Source: an uncultured Chloroflexia bacterium | GTDB taxonomy: Bacteria; Chloroflexota; Anaerolineae; Anaerolineales; UBA4823 | Direction of reading: 5' to 3' | Length of the DNA stretch: 64,000 bases | NCBI GenBank assembly: GCA_963777965.1 | Contig: CAVZSS010000022.1 | Location: 1,829 to 65,828, forward strand | In this document: piece by piece, positions 18,822 to 29,214 of the stretch | Numbering within the stretch: position 1 is the stretch's first letter | How the letters are laid out: every line of letters starts with the position of its first letter | Position numbers and translations under genes: made by a program | The notes under the pieces: generated by a model | Seen by the model: only the letters and a program-made list of their open reading frames with translations | Told to the model about the DNA's origin: nothing | Database searches by the model: none

Positions 18822-19465
18822 TAGTTTGTTTCTCCTTTGGTAGTTCGAACCTATCCGTTTCCATCAATCCTTAATGAAACTGCATGAAATTAGAAATCAG
18901 ATACTTATCTATGCTTGAAATGTTATAGAACAAAATGATGCTTGGTGTTGGGAGTACAAAATTGTTGAGGGGAAATTATTTGCTTAATCTGTATCACCAA
19001 CCCTTGGGTGATATATATCATAAAACCCGTAAAAGCTGAAGATTAATATTAGATAATGCTAATCTATTTTATCCTAATTGTATTATATAGCAGGTGCCAT
19101 TCTTCTCTTTAGTTAGAATATGGTCTCCTATCCCCTTGCTCAAGTAAAAGCTAGTTATGAAATGGAGGTAAGAAGATCATTGGTGTACATAGCGGGAAGA
19201 TCAACTATTGAATACTCTCCGCAAGTGTCGATTACCCTGTAGACCACCGTCTGGGTAGGGGAAAGTGGGACAAGGATTTGGACGAATCACATTATTCAAA
19301 CACCAGTATTTCATAGAAAATACCAGAGCTAGCAACCTGCTGCATTTGACAAGGTTGGTGAATGTTGAGTTTCAGTCGGCAGGTTCGATATCCATCCATC
19401 CCAACATACCTGAACATCCAATTGTGCGGGAGACTATATAATTTTTTATTTAATATTATGACAGC

Positions 19466-19484
19466 ATCACAAATTATTTGTGAT
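19466..19484. promoter_or_regulatory. Perfect 9-1-9 inverted repeat, candidate operator of the redox operon
   Basis: atcacaaat-t-atttgtgat, about 50 bp upstream of a TTGAAA/TATGAT promoter-like pair (19531-19560). Confidence 0.45.
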
Positions 19485-19569
19485 AAATAATACTTTTCTG
19501 ATGATGAGATTTACATTAATATAGTGTTAATTGAAATATTCGTATTTGCATATATATGATAATACGTCA

Positions 19570-19932
19570 ATGACCAATCCACAACTGACTCAGGAAATTT
19601 CACAACTCCATGCAGATATTTGCTCTGCCCTGGCAGATCCTAAACGTATTTTATTGATCTATGCTTTGGCTGAAAAACCTCGTTCAGTCAATGACCTGGC
19701 GCAAGAATTGGATATCAGCCAGCCAGCCACTTCCCGTAATTTAAAGGTATTGCGCGATCGGGGACTGGTTTTTTCAGTACGCCAGGGTACCACTTTAGAA
19801 TATCGCCTGACGGATACACGTCTGGTGGAAGCTCTGAATATGCTGCGTAATGTATTGCATGATCGGCTTACGTATAGTGCCAACCTCATGGAGAGTGCTG
19901 ATGAGGTCGATAAGGTTGCCAACACAGCTTAA
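19570..19932 (+). CDS. ArsR/SmtB family transcriptional regulator
   Basis: ICSALADPKRILLI, SVNDLAQEL.ISQPATSRNLKVLR.RGLV; ATG 19570 preferred over TTG 19531. Confidence 0.9.
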   Translation: MTNPQLTQEISQLHADICSALADPKRILLIYALAEKPRSVNDLAQELDISQPATSRNLKVLRDRGLVFSVRQGTTLEYRLTDTRLVEALNMLRNVLHDRLTYSANLMESADEVDKVANTA

Positions 19933-20002
19933 CTACCTGGTTTTTCTGCCATAATTCACCCATTTTTGTACGGTGAATTATTTTTATATTGAGGAGGACT
20001 TT

Positions 20003-20905
20003 ATGCACTACCTTAGGAACCGTTATCTAATTCCCATCTTCCTTGGTGCCATCCTGATCGCTGGTTTCTTCCTGCTCCTGACAGCCACAGAGACAAACGC
20101 GCAATGCGGGTCTCAAGCCTCATCCTGTAAAGATTGTCACGAGACACAAGGCGAGGACCCCGTTAATAACGATGGTACTGCCTGGCATACCCAGCATGCG
20201 CAGATCGATGCCTGCGTCAGCTGCCACGCAGGCAACCCCCAAAGCACAGACAAGGACCAGTCACACACCGGTATGGTAGCCTGGGAGTCAGATGTCAAGG
20301 CTGGTTGTGCCATGTGCCACCCCGATGATTACATGCAGCTTGCCCAGGAGTATGCCACCACGCTGGGCGTCACCCTGGGAGAAGGGGGTGCTGTGCCCCC
20401 TGTTGAACCTCCCCCAGGCCCCTCAACGTCCACAACGGAAGAGACTGCTCCCCCTGAAGGAGAGATCGTCATCAGCCAGCCCGGTACGGTCGATTATGTG
20501 CAGCAGTACAATGAAACTGTCCTGGGTGAAACCTCGATCAACTGGGGCAATGTGATCCTGGTGGTATTGATCCTTTGCATTTTATTGGGTGGTGGAGCGT
20601 TCATCTATTGGAACGAACGGCGTCGCAAGGGTTTGAAAGGCTTCTACACGAAAAAAACAGTCCAGCCGCTCGAAGGAGCTGTGCCAGTGGTGGAAGGCTT
20701 TTCCAGTGACGTGACAGAACTTTTACCACTCGTTGCCAAACTGAACCCGGTGGGGTTGCATGCCCTCAAACGCCTCCTGGCCAACCCCGACCAGGCTAAC
20801 GAGATGCTGCATGCCCTATCGCACCTTGACCCTGAGCTTGTGCGCCGCATTCAATCACTGGACAAAGACACGCGTGCCCTGCTGATGGCTCTGGCAGGAA
20901 GCTAA
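20003..20905 (+). CDS. Membrane-anchored triheme c-type cytochrome
   Basis: RBS gaggagg; signal peptide, CKDCH, CVSCH, CAMCH, Pro/Thr linker, TM helix, cytoplasmic tail. Confidence 0.8.
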   Translation: MHYLRNRYLIPIFLGAILIAGFFLLLTATETNAQCGSQASSCKDCHETQGEDPVNNDGTAWHTQHAQIDACVSCHAGNPQSTDKDQSHTGMVAWESDVKAGCAMCHPDDYMQLAQEYATTLGVTLGEGGAVPPVEPPPGPSTSTTEETAPPEGEIVISQPGTVDYVQQYNETVLGETSINWGNVILVVLILCILLGGGAFIYWNERRRKGLKGFYTKKTVQPLEGAVPVVEGFSSDVTELLPLVAKLNPVGLHALKRLLANPDQANEMLHALSHLDPELVRRIQSLDKDTRALLMALAGS

Positions 20906-20942
20906 CCCAAGGCATTTCATTCATCAACGAATTGGAGGAATA

Positions 20943-21498
20943 ATGAATCGGATCAAATCATTTGTATCCAATGAAAGCTGGTCACCCTACCTGGCGGGCA
21001 TCCTGCTCGGTATCGTTGGACTTGCTGACAGTCCTGCTTGCCAACACTTTACTGGGCGCTTCAGGTGCTTTCGAAAGCATAGCAGGGTTGATTGGAAAGA
21101 AGATCGCCCCTAGCGTGTTCAGCAATATCTATTGGGGCATGGAGGGAGGCCGGGCAATGCCAGTCATACGACCAGAGATCACCTGGTCGGTGATCTTGCT
21201 GGTGGGAATCTTTTTTGGTGGGACACTGGCGGCTCTCTCCAGCCGAACGTTCAAATTTCGCTTCAACGATGATGCCCAATGGAAACGCATCTTTGGCCCC
21301 CAACCCTGGAAACGTTGGGTACTCGGCTTCCTCGGCGCGGTCATTGTTGCATATGGGTCTGGCATCGCAGGTGGCTGCACCAGCGGTTTGGCCATCTCGG
21401 GCGGAATGCTGTTTGTGCCAGCCGCTTTCTTATTTATGGCAGGATTTATGGTTTCCGGCATCATCACCGCTTTGATCGTCTACGGCAGGAGGTATTAA
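20943..21498 (+). CDS. YeeE/YedE family sulfur-compound transporter, first half (frameshift near 5' end)
   Basis: WSPYLAGILLG, LGASG, GIFFGG, GIAGGCTSG motif. Confidence 0.85.
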
Positions 21499-21501
21499 AC
21501 C

Positions 21502-22056
21502 ATGACTACCTTCATCATAGCTGTCGTTTTGGGCATTGGCTTTGGGTTTTCGCTCAACAAAGCCGGTTTAACTAAATATCATAAGATTGCAAACCAGTTC
21601 CGTTTCACCGACATGACAATCCTCAAATATATGATGACCGCAATTGCCGTGGCAATGACGGGATTGTACATCTTCCGCGGGCTAGGTTGGGTCACCTTCC
21701 CCACCGTTCCTGCCACATATATTGTGGGGAATTTGATTGGCGGGCTGATCTTTGGAGTGGGTATGGCACTTGCTGGATACTGACCAGGCACCTGCGCCGC
21801 CGGGAGCGGCGAAGGTAAACTGGATTATATTGGTCCTGGACTGTTGGGCTTCTTAGCTGGTGCTGTTCTTTATGGTCTGACGTACCCAAAGGTATTCCCC
21901 ATGATTTCCAAGGCCGCAAACCTTGGCAATGTCGTTCTTCCTGATTTATTGAATCTGAATCCTTTTCTGACAGTACTATTCTTTGACCTGATCGTCATAT
22001 TCCTGTTCTACCTGATCGAGCGGGCAGGCTTACAGCGCAAGGATAAGCTTCAATAA
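21502..22056 (+). CDS. YeeE/YedE family transporter, second half, with in-frame TGA (predicted selenocysteine)
   Basis: ORFs 21502..21783 and 21844..22056 share a frame; readthrough gives GGLIFGVGMALAGY-U-PGTCAAGSGEG, matching the family LxGxCPGT motif. Confidence 0.82.
21784..21823 (+). promoter_or_regulatory. Candidate bacterial SECIS element
   Basis: Directly 3' of the TGA: ccag/ctgg, acct/aggt and cgccgc/gcggcg stems closing a cggga apical loop. Confidence 0.7.
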
Positions 22057-22109
22057 CCAACCTGACCTGTGGTGAGCAGGATCTTTCACCGCAGGTTGAA
22101 AGGCTAATT

Positions 22110-24286
22110 ATGCCGAAAACTGAGATTTCACGACGTGATTTTCTAAAATTAGGCACTGCAGCTGCCTCCGCATTTGCCATTGGGCAATTTATACCTCCAC
22201 CCGTTGCACGGGCGGCTACGCCAGGCAGGCTGCTGGATGACAATGGCAGCGGTTACCTCTATACCATGTGCGAGATGTGTGTATGGCGGTGCGGTGTGCG
22301 CGCCAAGGTGGATGAAGGGCGAGTGGTAAAGCTGGAGGGTAACCCGGAGCACCCCCATTCACATGGCAAGCTGTGTGCCAGAGGCCAGTCCGGCCTGATG
22401 AGCACCTATGACCCCGACCGGGTGCTTACCCCGCTCATCCGCGTGGGGAAGCGGGGTGAGGGCAAATTCCGCCAGGCTTCCTGGGACGAAGCCCTGGACA
22501 TGGTGGCGGAGAACATGCTGAAGATCAAGGACACCTATGGGCCTGAAGCGATGGTCTTCTCTTCCACCCATAATCTCTCGCAGCCTCTATTCGAGAACCT
22601 GCTGTACGGATTTGGATCACCCAATTATGGCACCCAGCGCAGCCTGTGCTTCAACGCCATGGTTACTGCGTTCCTGTTGACTTATGGAATCGAAGAACCA
22701 GCACGAAATTATGAAAATGTCCAGTATGATCTTGTTAGTGGGTCGAAATCTCACCGAGGCAATCTCGACGTCCGAGACCACCGAGATGATGGATGGCATT
22801 GCACCGAGGGGCAAAATTAGTCTATCTAGACCCGCGCTTCACCAAGACGGCCTCCAAAGCGACGAATGGATGCCAGTTCGCCCAGGTACCGACCTGGCTT
22901 TTCTTCTGGCGATGATCAACGTGATCGCAACGAAGAATTTGGAAACTGTGAATTTGTTAAAGAGTTTACCCTCGGTTGTGATCAATTACCCACCCACAGA
23001 GCTGAGTATCACACCAGAATGGGCAGGCAAACTGCGGATTCCAGCGGACACCATTCGGCGAATCGCGCGTGAGTTTGCAGCAGCAAACCGAAATGCCTTA
23101 GCTCACCCCGGATGGCGTACCTCCAATTTTATCAATTCCTTTCACACTGAACGTGCCATTGCCATCCTGAATGCCATGGTGGGTAATGTCTTTGGGGCGT
23201 GACTGTTTAATCGCCGAAAGCCCTGAGCGGTGGAATCTCTGGGCAGCCCACCACAACCTCCATATCCGCGTGTTTCCGCCAACGGTTGGATGGTGTGCCG
23301 TGGAAGTACCCCTTAGTACCACTAAAGATTGGTGTATTCCAGGAATTACGCGATTCCATTGTAGGTGCAACCTTACCAGGCACATGGCTGGTTTATCTCA
23401 CGCCAGAATCCGGTGCTTTCATTACCCGATCGGAGTAAGACGCTGGAAGCATTCAATAAGATGGACTTCATTGTCACAGTGGATATCATCATGAATGACA
23501 CAGGCTGGTTTTCCGATGTCGTCCTCCCTGAAGCATCATATTTGGAGCGCTACGACCCGTTGGTGCCCATGGAGGATCACATTTTCATCCGCCAGCCGGT
23601 TATCGAGCCGCAGGGTGAGGCAAAATCTGCCCTGATGATCTATAAAGAACTGGGCACCCGCCTGGGTTTGGCTGACTTCTTCCAATATAAGGATGAAGAA
23701 GACTACCTTAATCAGCAACTAGCTCCACATGGTTATTCCTTGGAGAGAGCTTCGCTTGCACGGGACATCAAAGTTTCCGATGAAGAAACCAAGATCTTAA
23801 TGTTCAACTCCCAGCGGAAAAGTAGAAGTCTATTCAGAAACCCTGGCAAAAGCTGGAATTTGATCCCGTCTACCTATCTGGGAGGAACCACCCCAACCAA
23901 AGCCAGGTGAGTTTTACCTGCTGACTGGCAAAGTGGGTCAGCACACCCAAATGGGCACTCAAAATAATCAGCTGTTGCACAAGTACCAGGATGAGCCCCG
24001 CCTTTGGATGGCGCCGGATGCTGCTCAAAATCTGAGCTTGAAGGATTGGGATACGGTCGAGGTCACTTCACCCGTGGGCTCGGTCAAAGTGGCCTTGCAG
24101 GTCACCCCTGCTATCCGTACTGACTGTGTCTACCTGACCCCGGGCTTTGGTCATCTCTCGATGGGATTACGCACTGCCTATGGTGTGGGTGCGTCAGACT
24201 CAGTGTTACACGTCACCTACACTGATCCGATCAGTGGTGGTCAGGCACTCAGCCAGACCTTCGTCTCGGTCAGGAAGGCGGGATAA
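22110..24286 (+). CDS. Molybdopterin oxidoreductase catalytic subunit, thiosulfate/polysulfide reductase (PhsA/PsrA)-like; several frameshifts
   Basis: Tat signal SRRDFLK; CEMCVWRC...CARG 4Fe-4S motif; QRSLC Mo-ligand Cys; RPGTD; DVVLPEASYLER; molydop-binding C-terminal domain. Confidence 0.85.
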
Positions 24287-24296
24287 GGAGAAGCCT

Positions 24297-25073
24297 ATGC
24301 CTCAGAAAAATCATTATGCCTTCGTGATTGATGTCGCCCGCTGCATCGACTGCCGGGCATGCCTTGTGGCGTGCAGCGTGGAGAATAACGTGCCTATGGA
24401 TCACACCCGCATCTGGGTATATGACCAGGGGATACAGGGAAATTGGCCTGACCTCAGCCGTACCTTTGTGCCCTACAACTGCATGCACTGTGAACACCCC
24501 CCCTGCACCGAGGTTTGTGTCAGTGGCGCCACCTACAAGGATAAAGTTAATGGTCTCGTGCTGGTGGATCAGGAAGCCTGTATCGGTTGTGGGTATTGTG
24601 TGGAAGCCTGTCCCTATGGGGTGCGTTATATTGACCAGAAACGCGGCGTGGTCGATAAATGTAATGCCTGCCTGCAGCGGCTGGAAGTTGGTCTCGAGCC
24701 AGCCTGTGTCGCCACTTGCGTTGGGAAGTCGCGCCTGTTTGGTGACCTGAATGATCCCGCCTCCGAAGTCTCGCTTGCGCTGCGGAATGCCAAATCGGTA
24801 ACAAATCTGGATTATGAAAAAGGCGAGACGGATACTGACCCAAATATTTACTTCCTGAACCTTCCGGAAACCGAGAGCATCTATTCCTCGGATCCCTTTG
24901 GGCAGGTAGTACAAACCTCCCTGCCTCGCGATCCGCATTACACCCTAGCTCAGGAAAGCTGGAGAAAAGTGGTCATCCCGCTTATGGCGGCGGCCATGGG
25001 GGCAACCTTCCTGGTGCAGGCTATCTTCTTCACCAAACAGCTGATTGAGGGTGAGAAGGAATTCGAGGATTAG
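24297..25073 (+). CDS. 4Fe-4S electron-transfer subunit (PhsB/PsrB/NrfC-like) with a C-terminal TM helix
   Basis: CIDCRAC, CMHCEHPPC, CIGCGYCVEACP, KCNAC...PACV; hydrophobic C-terminus. Confidence 0.9.
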   Translation: MPQKNHYAFVIDVARCIDCRACLVACSVENNVPMDHTRIWVYDQGIQGNWPDLSRTFVPYNCMHCEHPPCTEVCVSGATYKDKVNGLVLVDQEACIGCGYCVEACPYGVRYIDQKRGVVDKCNACLQRLEVGLEPACVATCVGKSRLFGDLNDPASEVSLALRNAKSVTNLDYEKGETDTDPNIYFLNLPETESIYSSDPFGQVVQTSLPRDPHYTLAQESWRKVVIPLMAAAMGATFLVQAIFFTKQLIEGEKEFED

Positions 25074-25093
25074 GCAGGAGAAGGAGAGATGAA

Positions 25094-25891
25094 ATGAGCC
25101 ATAAAAATATTCCTTTACCAGAACGACAGCGACTGCGCCAAAAGATGTACAAGAAGCATAATCTTGCCAACATCCTGACCCACTGGTTCAATGTATTCTC
25201 CTGGCTGCTGCTGCTTTCCACTGGGATTGCCATCATCTCATCCCCCAGGTTGGGGATCACCCCGCTTTGGATGCAGGACGCCTTCCGCAATATATTCGGA
25301 GGCGACGCCAATCTGATCCGCTTTCACTATACAGTGGGTTTTGTCTGGATCTTTGTGATTATATTCAATGTTTTTGTCGGTTTCCGAAAGTACTTCGTTC
25401 CCTTCGCCGCAAAACGCATGCTCTTGGACAGGGATGACATTGAGTGGATGAAGATCAAACCCCTGCAGATGATGGGCTTCATGAAGGGCAAGGATCTGCC
25501 ACCGCAGGATGCTTACAATGCCGGGCAGAAGATTTACAGCTATTTTGTTGTGGTTTGCACGCTTGGGATCATGGTCACCGGGCCGCTGATGGTGCATAAA
25601 TCCCTTTTCCCACCCATCGTCAAGCAGATCGCTCAACCGATTCACTTCATCTGTGTTTTCACAATTGTTGCCTGGTTGTTCATCCATGTTTATATGGGGG
25701 CGGTCTTCCCGGAAGAAAAGGAAGCCTTCTTCTCGATGTTTTCGGGCAAGGTTTCTGCCTGGTATGCACGCGCTCACCATGAGAAATGGTACAATGAAAA
25801 GCTCAAAGAGGAGACGGTGTGGGAGGATGAAGTCGAGCAAGAAGTGCTGGAATCAGATCCCCTCAAGGAAGGAACCAGCGGAGCAGACTGA
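25094..25891 (+). CDS. Cytochrome b membrane anchor, FdnI/PhsC type
   Basis: LTHW, RFHY, PPQDAYNAGQK, PIHF...IHVY, AMF/SMFSG-like motif, HHEKWY. Confidence 0.85.
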   Translation: MSHKNIPLPERQRLRQKMYKKHNLANILTHWFNVFSWLLLLSTGIAIISSPRLGITPLWMQDAFRNIFGGDANLIRFHYTVGFVWIFVIIFNVFVGFRKYFVPFAAKRMLLDRDDIEWMKIKPLQMMGFMKGKDLPPQDAYNAGQKIYSYFVVVCTLGIMVTGPLMVHKSLFPPIVKQIAQPIHFICVFTIVAWLFIHVYMGAVFPEEKEAFFSMFSGKVSAWYARAHHEKWYNEKLKEETVWEDEVEQEVLESDPLKEGTSGAD

Positions 25892-25911
25892 TAACCGCCT
25901 GATTTGTTGAT

Positions 25912-25939
25912 AAACCGCTCCTGAAAAGGGCGGTTTTTT
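25912..25939 (+). terminator. Rho-independent terminator
   Basis: aaaccgctc-ctgaaaa-gggcggttt followed by a T-run. Confidence 0.7.
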
Positions 25940-25954
25940 ATCCCTAACTTGCCC

Positions 25955-26986
25955 ATGCGTCCATCTTTTTACGACCATTTACACCCACCCACGATCCCAG
26001 CCCCTCAGGCGCGCCTGCGCTACACCCTGGGGATGGGGGGATTGGCTGTATTCCTGACCCTGGTGGTGGGTCTCACCGGCGTCATGGTGACCTTTTTTTA
26101 CATCCCCACGCCTGAAGGGGCAGCAAATTCCGTTCAATCCCTGACTTTCCTGGTTCCATTCGGCTGGCTGATACGCAACCTGCATTACTGGTCTGCCCAG
26201 TTGTTGATCCTGGTGTCGTTACTCCACCTGCTGCGGGTAGTTTTCACTGGGGCTTACCTGCCTCCGCGCCGGCTCAATTACCAACTCGGGTTGTCCCTGC
26301 TGGTCGTCTGCCTTTTCCTCGATTTCACCGGCTACGTGTTACGTTGGGACGAGGGTGTTCATTGGGCGCTGGTGGCAGGCACAAATTTGGTGAAGTCCAT
26401 CCCATTGGTTGGCGATGGGCTCTATATAACCCTTGTGGGTGGCAGCCAGGTAGGCGCAGCTACCCTGATTCGCTTCTATGCCTGGCACCTTTTCGGTCTG
26501 ATGCTTATCCTGATGGCAATTGGAGTATGGCACCTGTTCCGGGTTCGTCGTGATGGGGGTATTGCTGTGCCACCTCCTGAGCTCCGCGCGACCCACGCGC
26601 GCATCAAACGCAAAGAGCTATCTCGCCGGGAAGGACTGGCAATGGTATGGGTAACCATTGTGGTGGTGGTACTCGCCATCCTGATACCTGCCCCGTTGGC
26701 ACCGGGTATCCAGGAGGGGTCTGCCTCAGCCATTGAAAACCTGGCCCCATGGTTCTTCCTGTGGGTTCAGCAACTGCTTAAACTGGGGGATCCATTCATT
26801 TTTGGAGTGCTTATTCCTCTTGGGGCACTGTTGGTCCTTGCCCTGGTGCCTTATATCACTCCTAAGAAACTTTCACCAGCCGAGCTCGGCAGGTGGTTCC
26901 CGCATGGTGGGCGCAATATACAAATCCTGATCGCCATCCTTGCAGGGGTGATCATCCTGCTCACGCTACTCGCCCTTCTCACCTGA
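25955..26986 (+). CDS. Cytochrome b of a Rieske/cytochrome b complex (b6-like plus subunit IV-like region)
   Basis: FGWLIRNLHYWSA...HLLRV, FTGYVLRWD, RFYAWH...WHLFRV, APWFF at the PEWY position. Confidence 0.85.
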   Translation: MRPSFYDHLHPPTIPAPQARLRYTLGMGGLAVFLTLVVGLTGVMVTFFYIPTPEGAANSVQSLTFLVPFGWLIRNLHYWSAQLLILVSLLHLLRVVFTGAYLPPRRLNYQLGLSLLVVCLFLDFTGYVLRWDEGVHWALVAGTNLVKSIPLVGDGLYITLVGGSQVGAATLIRFYAWHLFGLMLILMAIGVWHLFRVRRDGGIAVPPPELRATHARIKRKELSRREGLAMVWVTIVVVVLAILIPAPLAPGIQEGSASAIENLAPWFFLWVQQLLKLGDPFIFGVLIPLGALLVLALVPYITPKKLSPAELGRWFPHGGRNIQILIAILAGVIILLTLLALLT

Positions 26987-26987
26987 T

Positions 26988-28206
26988 ATGCGCCGATTGC
27001 TTTTATTCGCCTCGCTTCTTTTATTTGTCGCCTCTGGCTTTGTTCTATGGCGGCAGTTTAGCAATTCCAAACCCATTGGCATCACACCCAGTCTCACCGG
27101 GCAGGCTGAATATTGTCTCACCTGCCATGCTGACCTGCCAGAGGTCAGCCAATCTCACCCAGTGGAAACCTTCGGATGTGTGCTCTGCCACGGTGGGGAA
27201 CCACTGGCACTCTCAGCAGATTTAGCCCACAGCTCCATGCGCGGCGGTGCGAACCCATCGGAGCTTGCAGTTGTGGAAGCTTCCTGTGGAGGTGAGATGT
27301 GTCACAGTGGTACTTCACAGGCAAACCGAGACCACATCCAGCGCGTCGCTACCAGCATTCAAGCAACCTATGCAGGCGCGATTGCCCAGATGCGTTATGC
27401 CTTTGGTGCCCAGCCTGACCTGACTGCTCAAATGGGTGTGTATGCCATTGATGGGCTTTCCGCATTCGACCCTGCTTCAGATAGCTCCCCCGCCCTGCAG
27501 TTATTTTCTGATAATTGCCTGTTTTGCCACCTATCTGCGGATCCTTTGGAGGGAGAAGAATTCAACCGCTGGAGTGGTTGTTCCGCCTGCCATTCCCCAG
27601 CTCCACGGGAGGATGGAACCCTCGTTCACCAGCTGGCAACATCGGTTGCCTACACCCAATGCAACAAATGCCATAATCGCGGTAATTATAGATTATCGGA
27701 TATGCAATTTCACCCACGTGATGATGCCCCAACCGATCGTTTAGGGGATTATTATCAGCCGATTGCTGAGTTCACCCGCTGTGAGTGGACTCTTGATTGT
27801 GCAGACTGCCACACCCGGCAGGAAGCAATGGGTGATGGGCACATCTACAACAACAAGAAGGAGATCCAGTATATCCAATGCCGCACCTGCCATGGCACGT
27901 CCGACGCCCTGCCGCTCTCCTATACCATCACTGAAGAGGACGACCTTGCTCTGCGACTGGATTTCCTTAATCCTGTCCTTGATTTGAAAGTGGGAGATAC
28001 CATCCTGATGACAGATTTAGGTGAGCCTCTGTGGAACATCCGCGTGCTGCCGGGAGATAGGTCGAGTACACCGATGTATGATCTCTTCACCAAAGCCACT
28101 GGTCAACGCCTCACATTTAACCCAGTGATGGGTAGTGCCTGCCAGCAGGACCCTAGATCAACAGGAAGCGCGTTACTGCCATGAATGCCATGCCATCGAA
28201 AGATGA
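26988..28206 (+). CDS. Multiheme c-type cytochrome (8 CxxCH plus one CX4CH); frameshift near 3' end
   Basis: CLTCH, CVLCH, CGGEMCH, CLFCH, CSACH, CNKCH, CADCH, CRTCH, and CHECH in the shifted frame ending at TGA 28204-28206. Confidence 0.8.
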
Positions 28207-28619
28207 TATCCTCTCCCGTCGCAGCTTCCTTGACCTGGCGGTGAAGGCAAGCCTGGCAGGTTCAGCCTTGATAGGTTTGGGGATGATGGTGCGCTACTTC
28301 AGCTTTCAAAGTGAGGCTAAACCCTCCCAGTGACTATGATCTGGGTCCAGCATCAGATTATCCGCCCGGATCACGCATCCCTGTCCAGTCTGCACAGGCA
28401 ATCATCATCCATGACACCCAGGGTTATTCAGCCATCAGCCTGGTCTGCCCCCATCTGGGCTGCGTTATCAACGTGAACGGCGATGGGTTTACCTGTCCAT
28501 GCCATGGCTCACGTTTCCTGCCTGATGGCAGCTTGCGGAGCGGTCCGGCGTCTCACCCCTTGACCAGCTTACGGGTTGAAGTGAATGCTGATGGTCACTT
28601 GATCCTTTATACCGGGTAA
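28190..28619 (+). CDS. Rieske 2Fe-2S protein (one frameshift)
   Basis: MPSKDDILSRRSFL Tat/TM leader from ATG 28190; CPHLGC and CPCHGS boxes; GPA. Confidence 0.88.
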
Positions 28620-28635
28620 GAAAGATGAGGTTTGC

Positions 28636-29214
28636 ATGTCTGAACAGTTATCAGCACTTCTCCGCAAGAGCGCATCCGAACACAGTCACCTATGCCCGCG
28701 CCAGGTTCTGGGGGTGCGCATGGGACTGGCTGGTCTTAAAGCGTTGCGTTTGAAAGCCCCGCTGAGCACTAGGACAGCCCTCGTCATCATCGAAACGGGG
28801 GGATGTTTTGCTGATGGTATAAGGGCAGCCACAGGCGCGACCGTTGGCCATCGGACACTCAGGGTCGAAGACCTGGGTAAGGTTGCCGCCACCTTCACCA
28901 ATCTGAAGTCCGGGACCAGCCTGCGGATGGCACCCAGGTTGGACGTCAGGACCCTTGCCCTTGCTTATGCACCGGAAGAGAAACGCCGTTATTTCGCCCA
29001 GCTACAAGGTTACCAGGTGATGCCAGATGAAGAACTGTTTATTTTTCAATCGGTGGAATTGCAGACCCCCGCCTCCCAGATCATCAGCCACCAGAATGCC
29101 CGCGCGCGATGTTCAAACTGTGGGGAAGAGATCATCAACGAACGCGAGCTGGTGGTGGAAGGTACGATTCTATGCCGTACATGCGCACACGGTGGGTACT
29201 ACCGACTAAAGTAG
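28636..29214 (+). CDS. FmdE family protein with C-terminal zinc finger
   Basis: HSHLCPRQVLGVRMG, CFADG, CSNCGE...CRTC. Confidence 0.85.
   Translation: MSEQLSALLRKSASEHSHLCPRQVLGVRMGLAGLKALRLKAPLSTRTALVIIETGGCFADGIRAATGATVGHRTLRVEDLGKVAATFTNLKSGTSLRMAPRLDVRTLALAYAPEEKRRYFAQLQGYQVMPDEELFIFQSVELQTPASQIISHQNARARCSNCGEEIINERELVVEGTILCRTCAHGGYYRLK

Follow-up and report, generated by a model that had tools for sequence, protein, structure and literature searches.

The described proteins closest to those considered here belong to the YeeE/YedE family of membrane proteins (Pfam Sulf_transp, PF04143). TsuA/YeeE, known from Spirochaeta thermophila (StYeeE; PDB 6LEO) and E. coli, is a single chain of ~330 aa with nine transmembrane (TM) helices and three cysteines. 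In StYeeE, C22, C91 and C293 line the centre of an hourglass, ~7 Å apart; the substitutions C91A and C293A abolish complementation, C91 and C293 being essential, and a C22-C91 disulfide is present in the crystals (PMC7449682). In published work on YeeE/TsuA, all three pore cysteines are reported to be essential, with the proposal that they just hydrogen-bond thiosulfate. The second point of comparison is the half-size pair of Serratia, with ~130 aa and four TM helices per protein, in which PmpB corresponds to the N-terminal half with the C91 equivalent and PmpA to the C-terminal half with the C293 equivalent, and for which a heterodimer has been proposed (PMC11582611). Selenocysteine (Sec) is already known in the YeeE/YedE family as a prediction: a selenoprotein of this family is listed in PMC9312934 (2022) and PMC13188914 (2026), with WP_012471001.1 as the example, the motif GUxSG in the 2026 table, and Zhang & Gladyshev 2008 and Peng et al. 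2016 as the credited sources. The present analysis concerns a pair of adjacent genes of this family, YeeE-A and YeeE-B, in a 64,000-nt stretch of DNA from an uncultured bacterium of the Anaerolineae, in the Chloroflexota (the window; G000:C22:1829-65828 in the source assembly G000, which comprises 2.8 Mb in 36 contigs and is 63.6% complete). YeeE-B is interrupted by a single in-frame TGA which, judging from the comparative sequence data presented below, is very probably a genuine Sec codon in a YeeE-family half-protein.

YeeE-A (20943..21498, plus strand) and YeeE-B (21502..22056, plus strand) appear to encode a YeeE/YedE-type membrane protein in two halves, a split of the PmpA/PmpB kind. The open reading frame (ORF) 21502..21783 ends in the TGA (21781..21783, plus strand), and the next 60 nt are free of stops and in frame with the ORF 21844..22056; as an earlier note on this DNA had stated, the two ORFs make up one frame, which consists of 184 codons with the UGA as codon 94 and encodes ...GMALAGY-U-PGTCAAGSGEGKLDY... 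(motif G-Y-U-P-G-T-C). The readthrough protein matches PF04143 with 72.6 bits over profile positions 10-155 (E 5e-20; gathering cut-off 27), that is, the family's N-terminal half, whereas YeeE-A matches positions 226-309 of 310, the C-terminal half, with 39.5 bits; the intact YeeE-A ortholog of the related genome G015 scores 58.2 bits. The readthrough protein also aligns with StYeeE (E 6.7e-4), and U94 falls on Cys91 (...LAGGC...), which bears out the claim of the same note that the break lies on the conserved Cys. Comparison of YeeE-A with the PDB by phmmer yielded chance matches only; from its place in the family profile, the invariant cysteine of this partner half is inferred to be the equivalent of C293. 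The GGCTSG motif with this cysteine, to which the note had also pointed, is contained in the ORF 20962..21498 (GIAGGCTSGL), and A-G-G-C-T-S-G-L is invariant in 50/50 orthologs, with the Cys kept and never replaced by TGA.

Compared with TsuA, the pair covers a homologous fold region, with U94 at Cys91 and the partner GGC in the Cys293 part of the profile, but consists of two chains of ~180 aa (178-191 aa per half), has no Cys22 equivalent, and carries Sec in place of Cys and an extra Cys at position +4. TsuA also has the partner protein YeeD and an assimilatory role, whereas no yeeD-like gene is seen between the cluster genes here. With PmpA/PmpB, the pair shares the adjacent N-half and C-half genes and one conserved pore Cys position in each; it differs in the length of the halves (~180-190 aa), the Sec in the N-half, and the gene order, C-half then N-half. 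The likeness to the published Sec-YeeE/YedE entry extends to the PF04143 domain, a single Sec for Cys in a glycine-rich motif, and the status of a computational prediction; the motif is different (GUxSG there, G-[YFIT]-U-P-G-T-C here), and so are the half-size subunit with a separate Cys partner, the occurrence in Anaerolineae, and the operon with a PhsA-like gene. The counterpart of GUxSG in the proteins described here, GCxSG, is found in the partner half and always contains Cys.

Evidence for Sec comes from the conservation of the TGA column. Among 61 related genomes, 26 close orthologs were identified (E ≤ 1e-58), of which 24 contain exactly one in-frame TGA, in all 24 at the identical column (G-Y/F-U-P-G-T-C), and the other two contain none and have Cys at this column. 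In an even sample of the class (401 genomes), 28 further genomes encode an ortholog (E ≤ 1e-40), with 29 gene copies that have TGA (16) or Cys (13) at the column. A scan of all bacteria and archaea with one genome per species returned 436 relatives; the best 80 of these 436, all with Chloroflexota-type titles, include 39 TGA and 41 Cys forms; L145, a record titled Brevefilum fermentans, is one with the TGA. After deduplication, there are 132 distinct orthologous coding sequences (CDS), with TGA at the column in 77 and TGY in 55; homologs with one or the other at this column were what the earlier note had proposed to look for. The 77 Sec forms are 52-99% identical to the window protein and all contain the motif G-[YFIT]-U-P-G-T-C; the Cys four residues past the Sec is kept in 77/77 of them and is missing from 18 of the 55 Cys forms, a pattern drawn from sequences that are related to one another and hence not to be taken as independent statistical evidence. 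A FastTree phylogeny of 127 distinct full-length genes, for which the Sec/Cys column was masked, requires a minimum of 15 Sec/Cys changes, and well-supported branches force at least five of them; this tree gives no direction of the changes.

This distribution bears directly on one alternative, namely, that the UGA is a true stop, so that YeeE-B is a pseudogene or a set of two small proteins of 93 and ~70 aa. Under translation table 11 the frame is indeed split, real frame breaks are present in neighboring genes of the window, and the TGA forms mostly lack a full-length product in public gene calls. A termination codon, however, would hardly stay in one place across 77 distinct genes, down to 52% identity, with the sequence on either side conserved in a single frame, while the remaining orthologs have Cys in the column and no other break accompanies the TGA. 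A pseudogene is also unlikely to last across many genera next to an intact partner and operon, and the synonymous sites of the TGA forms, and of these forms only, are constrained exactly downstream of the codon (see below). Termination at this codon is accordingly considered highly improbable.

The public annotation of these genes requires a separate comment. Among 121 proteins, comprising the readthrough translation with TGA rendered as C (P0001) and the 120 best database proteins, the TGA column contains Cys in 115, 'W' in six, and U or X in none. All six 'W' entries (P0002, P0003, P0017, P0080, P0082, and P0120) are JGI calls in which the TGA is translated as Trp (G-Y/F-W-P-G-T-C); they probably stem from short contigs whose genes were called with TGA=Trp, and they can mislead anyone who aligns this family. 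Because there is no U or X among the 121 proteins and the W entries read TGA as Trp, it is clear that Sec forms go unrecognised in public gene calls, where they are either split or mistranslated. The W entries nevertheless raise the possibility that a standard amino acid is inserted at the UGA, either under a code reassigned throughout the lineage or by near-cognate suppression with Trp or Cys that is aided by the downstream hairpin and involves no selenium; in principle, a hairpin could stimulate generic readthrough of this kind. A change of the code is excluded because TGA terminates 426 of the 1103 stop-to-stop frames of at least 300 codons in G000 and is the terminator of the YeeE-B ortholog itself in G015. 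Furthermore, the homologs have Cys at the column and never a sense-coded Trp or Gly. The fit of the hairpin to the SelB-type model, the presence of selA, selB, and selD in the genome and of tRNA-Sec in its relatives, and the two nearest Cys forms, which belong to genomes where no selA was found, all argue in the same direction (see below), and readthrough with a standard amino acid appears quite improbable.

The hairpin that follows the TGA (21784..21824, plus strand) resembles a bacterial selenocysteine insertion sequence (SECIS). Its core is a stem-loop at 21790-21816 with 3-4 bp, a mismatch, and a 6-bp GC stem, topped by the apical loop CGGGA (21801-21805), which begins 17 nt past the codon; counted from the U of UGA as 1, C11-C12-U13 pair with A33-G34-G35 and C15-C20 with G26-G31, and C21-G22-G23-G24-A25 form the loop. 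Folding of the 61 nt from 21775 reproduces the hairpin as drawn in the earlier note, with the G-containing loop at 17 nt and the arms ccag/ctgg (outer stem), acc(u)/(a)ggu, and cgccgc/gcggcg, at -24 kcal/mol against a mean of -16.4 for shuffled sequences (z -2.7); with 4 of 200 shuffles folding equally well, the fold of the single sequence is little above chance and is only modest evidence, and it is the comparative data that carry the case. The element agrees with all four criteria of the bacterial SECIS (bSECIS) model given in section 5 of PMC13188914: the apical loop has 5 nt (model, 3-9 nt) and the upper stem 6 bp (4-16 bp), the loop has G then G from its position 2 (G within the loop's first two positions, usually followed by G or U), the spacing from the UGA is 17 nt (16-37 nt), and the energy is -16.8 kcal/mol for the fold of positions 10-37 (≤ -7.5 kcal/mol). 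As in the bSECIS model, the hairpin is located within the CDS, immediately 3' of the UGA, and combines a small G-rich loop and a GC-rich upper stem with an energy well under -7.5.

The hairpin is kept in the Sec forms. Across 40 of these, the nine base pairs of the stem are intact in 94.4% of 360 cells; the 26 one-sided changes are all to G-U, and of the 20 unpaired cells, 12 concern a single pair in a clade with GQG in place of GEG. Synonymous differences among 35 full-length Sec forms amount to 0.32 at codons 95-105 compared with 0.58 in the rest of the gene, and the four lowest of the 174 sliding windows of 11 codons start at codons 93-96, whereas in 14 Cys forms the same codons show 0.55 against 0.54 elsewhere and the minimum is at another place. 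The mean fold energy of positions +10 to +37 is -14.4 kcal/mol in the Sec forms and -10.4 kcal/mol in the Cys forms (Mann-Whitney p 1.8e-4, a value that overstates the difference given that the sequences are related). The RNA evidence consists of conservation, wobble-only change, and synonymous constraint, not covariation. In the most divergent Sec form (L078, UPGTCLAGLGRG), the consensus stem is lost and a shifted hairpin of 7-8 bp with the loop GGUCUU is found at an unchanged distance from the codon, with GGU at positions 22-24. In the metagenome run X4, the summed contig depth over 21780-21823 is 19.4 versus 3.8 and 5.1 in the adjoining bins, and several otherwise dissimilar contigs match just the ~45 nt past the TGA; this block is conserved at the nucleotide level between organisms within one sample. 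As a separate observation, one Cys form with TGT at the column (L070, G238:C48) retains a near-perfect SECIS-like hairpin (-17.0 kcal/mol, register unchanged), which is what one would expect if Sec had recently given way to Cys or if a Cys form stood ready to switch.

The components of the Sec pathway are largely represented in the genome of origin. G000 has an intact selA (531 bits), a selB, and a selD (360 bits) with an in-frame TGA of its own in ...SCAG-U-ASKL... (G000:C9:14181, L008), so that SelD itself appears to be a selenoprotein. A tRNA-Sec (96 nt, anticodon tca, 72 bits) was found in four of five well-assembled relatives, the fifth being G020 (78% complete). The selA gene was detected in 36 of 39 genomes with Sec forms and in 12 of 15 with Cys forms. 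The Cys-form genomes without a detected selA include G059 (98% complete, L032) and G038 (93%, L041), which hold the two Cys forms nearest to the window clade; this fits the replacement of Sec by Cys upon loss of the Sec trait.

The quality of the assembly has to be considered with regard to a further alternative, a sequencing or assembly error at a codon that is truly TGC or TGT. Indels are indeed present in this assembly: YeeE-A is broken by a 1-nt insertion near 21021, as seen by comparison with G015 and G011, which the earlier note missed; the PhsA-like gene (22110-24286) is spread over three reading frames; and selB (G000:C5:114454-116341) is in two frames with a TAA in addition. In runs X1 and X3, independent contigs do not contain the extra base near 21021, and all three breaks look like assembly errors more than decay. 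The TGA at 21781-21783 is unlike these breaks: it is a conserved, substitution-level feature, and an error here would have to be a substitution, while the errors seen are indels. Short contigs of four runs from three studies bridge the codon, and none of the 40 differences listed between contigs and window is located there (29 further differences are outside this list); no RNA run is listed as containing the window stretch. Given also that TGA is found at this position in dozens of independently assembled genomes, an error is scarcely credible. The earlier note had named three findings that would speak against its reading, TGC or TGT in the reads, no homolog with TGA at this position, and a genome without selA, selB, and selC; the results on these three points support the conclusion that none of them overturns the assignment of Sec.

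Several observations weigh against the interpretation of YeeE-B as the Sec-containing subunit of a YeeE-type transporter. With respect to the decoding of the UGA, selB of G000 is recovered as two adjacent pieces (170 and 136 bits) on account of the frameshift and TAA, and no tRNA-Sec gene (selC) was found among the 27 tRNAs of this incomplete assembly; of the sel genes that the earlier note had proposed to search for, selA, selB, and selD are present in G000, and selC was found in relatives only; the absence of selC and the split selB fit an error-prone, incomplete metagenome-assembled genome, which is not proof. No selA was found in three genomes with Sec forms, G010 (72% complete), G400 (92%, 750 contigs), and G228 (91%, 500 contigs). 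With respect to the hairpin, none of the nine stem pairs shows a compensatory double change among the 40 Sec forms, and shuffled sequences reach the observed values, so the covariation that the note had proposed to look for is not seen in the hairpin. An Rfam scan of 19000-26000 (E up to 10) gave three chance-level matches and no SECIS family, a point of difference from described bacterial SECIS. With respect to the function, the TsuA/YeeE equivalog models NF052577 and NF041049 give 42.2 bits (cut-off 400) and 24.8 bits (cut-off 645), and the YedE/FdhT selenium-metabolism models NF033796 and TIGR04112 give 32.3 bits (cut-off 350) and 19.9 bits (cut-off 200); because the TsuA and YedE equivalog scores are far under the cut-offs, any assignment to thiosulfate is by analogy only. 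Finally, the AlphaFold2 model of the readthrough monomer is poor (mean predicted local distance difference test score, pLDDT, 62.6; predicted TM-score 0.43) and retrieved no match from the PDB with Foldseek at E ≤ 0.001. In this low-confidence model, residues 92-94 form a loop followed by a short helix at 95-102, and there are more helices than the four TM helices of PmpA/PmpB.

The association between the two halves is best reflected in the gene order: YeeE-A is directly upstream and the PhsA-like gene directly downstream of YeeE-B in 125 of the 128 loci with room on both sides, out of 135 loci (132 distinct CDS). A complex prediction for the natural Cys-form pair of G059 scored 0.40 in all three runs, compared with 0.00 for the best of three controls, with a partner pLDDT of 67-68, contact agreement of at least 98%, and alignments of 50 and 48 rows. 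In the calibration of such predictions, 58 of 80 solved complexes and two of 110 mismatches attain the mark, scores of 0.60 or less being shared by just seven of those 80 complexes and both passing mismatches, and halves of a solved fold may also pass through their likeness to the solved single chain. A heterodimer of the two halves is considered likely, chiefly on the grounds that their genes are strictly paired and that the proteins are homologous to the two halves of a single solved chain. The earlier proposal of a Cys/Sec heterodimeric transporter is upheld with respect to Sec, through the column, the hairpin, and the machinery, whereas the heterodimer depends on strict gene adjacency and the weak complex score.

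The following scheme can be proposed for the system. SelB and Sec-tRNA(Sec) would decode the UGA at codon 94, being recruited by the stem-loop that begins 9 nt past the codon, with its G-rich apical loop 17 nt downstream. Sec94 would take the place of Cys91 of StYeeE, a pore residue, with a second Cys four residues on (U-P-G-T-C), and the partner half would provide the Cys293-equivalent cysteine. By extension of the TsuA structure and the PmpAB proposal, the halves may assemble into a YeeE-like hourglass in the form of a pseudo-symmetric heterodimer, with Sec94 central and the partner Cys toward the outside. Such a heterodimer might carry thiosulfate, sulfane sulfur, or a similar sulfur or selenium compound through the membrane, substrate and direction both being speculative. 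This transport could be in the service of the PhsA/PsrA-like extracytoplasmic reductase, whose gene follows directly, and a selenolate, which is more nucleophilic, would replace the thiol where the pathway is narrowest. We put the chances for and against a transport role of the pair about level. The Ext-like cytochromes at the end of the cluster (see below) hint at a selenium or tellurium oxyanion, and not thiosulfate, as a possible substrate of the PhsA-like enzyme.

Alternatively, YeeE-B could be a genuine selenoprotein that functions not as part of a solute transporter but as a membrane chalcogen relay or oxidoreductase, in which the U94/C98 selenosulfide couple and the partner Cys pass sulfane sulfur or selenium covalently to or from the neighboring cytochrome and molybdoenzyme system. 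The distribution of the Cys at +4, with the caveat on related sequences given above, favors this possibility, as do the resemblance of UxxxC/CxxxC to redox motifs, the placement of the genes in a cluster of respiratory type, where cytochromes c and b accompany a PhsA-like enzyme, and the disulfide in the StYeeE crystals (PMC7449682). On the other side, thiosulfate uptake is the role ascribed to TsuA/YeeE, the only relatives that have been characterised, and no redox partner domain is present; on balance, this alternative seems rather unlikely. A more specific version, in which Sec94, Cys98, and the partner Cys form a covalent relay across the membrane via selenosulfide or selenotrisulfide intermediates instead of conducting a free anion, is doubtful. 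If true, it would couple the extracytoplasmic PhsA/PsrA-like reductase and cytochromes to the cytoplasm and would mean that YeeE-family 'transporters' use thiol/selenol chemistry, with Sec/Cys switches marking the rate-limiting chemistry. Irrespective of the exact role, the repeated Sec/Cys swaps at the central pore position argue for nucleophilic or redox chemistry there, and the natural Sec/Cys pairs are on offer for testing it.

With regard to the genuine Sec codon as the preferred reading, the relationship to previous predictions can be defined as follows. The 2026 text counts YeeE/YedE among several transporter-linked selenoproteins (PMC13188914), and the remark in the earlier note that Sec is unusual in a transporter was overstated, given that PMC9312934 and PMC13188914 list YeeE/YedE together with other transporter-associated selenoproteins. 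Neither Zhang & Gladyshev 2008 nor Peng 2016 uses the terms 'YeeE' or 'YedE' in its main text; the supplements of these papers may hold details and might include Chloroflexota forms. A full-text literature search found Sec-YeeE in the two reviews only, and no split YeeE selenoprotein, UPGTC motif, or operon of the type described here; a tblastn search of the readthrough protein against plasmids for WP_012471001.1 returned 18 distant half-size YeeE/DUF6691 genes, none of them relevant. Measured against the published entry as it is listed, the form described here is new in its split architecture, in the invariance of U-P-G-T-C, in its setting within a reductase operon, and in its wide and unannotated distribution among Anaerolineae. 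These findings add a predicted membrane-embedded selenoprotein that is common in Anaerolineae, a group abundant in sediments and digesters, and tie selenium use to a conserved cluster for a reductase of the thiosulfate/polysulfide/selenite type.

The YeeE pair is part of a ten-gene cluster, from an ArsR-family regulator through an FmdE-domain protein, whose order is common to the window and to G015, in which the cluster is intact; in the window, all genes are on the plus strand. The first gene (19531..19932) encodes an ArsR/SmtB-family regulator (NF033788, 76 bits, cut-off 55; Pfam HTH_5) that is in the same place in G015. It is followed by a membrane-anchored c-type cytochrome (19973..20905) with the motifs CKDCH, CVSCH, and CAMCH and one hydrophobic helix, which is 81% identical to its G015 counterpart and has weak family matches only. 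Downstream of the YeeE pair, the PhsA/PsrA-like, Tat-exported molybdopterin oxidoreductase (22110..24286) is recognizable from its N-terminal piece (PhsA, 176 bits; Tat signal; Fe4S4 domain), and the ortholog of G015, which is intact with 725 aa, reaches 564 bits where the PhsA cut-off is 694. The next gene (24297..25070) codes for a TtrB/NrfC/DsrO-like 4Fe-4S electron-transfer subunit that is 84% identical to its G015 ortholog; the latter matches Pfam Fer4_11 and is under the cut-offs of the TtrB, NrfC, and DsrO models. A cytochrome b561/FdnI-like membrane subunit (25094..25888) was assigned by comparison with the G015 ortholog. The remaining genes encode a cytochrome b that resembles a fusion of ExtP and ExtQ (25955..26956; in G015, NF040969 with 212 bits, cut-off 290, and Pfam Cytochrome_B), an ExtM-like multiheme c-type cytochrome (27030..28151; NF040943, 123 bits, cut-off 800), and, as the last of the conserved cluster, the FmdE-domain protein (28612..29211; Pfam FmdE, 94 bits for the G015 ortholog). 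The names ExtP, ExtQ, and ExtM (25955-28151) derive from 'selenite/tellurite reduction operon' models, all of which score under their cut-offs. In the Cys-form genome G059, ORFs of corresponding sizes are present in a like order from the regulator to the cytochrome b561-like gene, as judged by a comparison of sizes.

A phylum-wide scan with PF04143 over 301 genomes gave a tally of 72 of the 301, which includes two genomes flagged as unpublished (G666 and G493) that enter into no other result presented here. In four genomes (G315, G291, G212, and G456), the apparent TGAs of partner-type halves were rejected as Sec codons, since they terminate the gene upstream. G569, a genome of 1.9 Mb that belongs to a different family within the phylum, encodes three YeeE-family genes with one in-frame TGA each (including L178, G569:C10:45764-46777, and L182, G569:C14:8446-9327), at non-homologous positions and in the contexts PGT-U-VSS, FCAG-U-YVG, which has a CxxU look, and HAA-U-GLV; these could be further Sec sites, or TGA could be read differently in that lineage.

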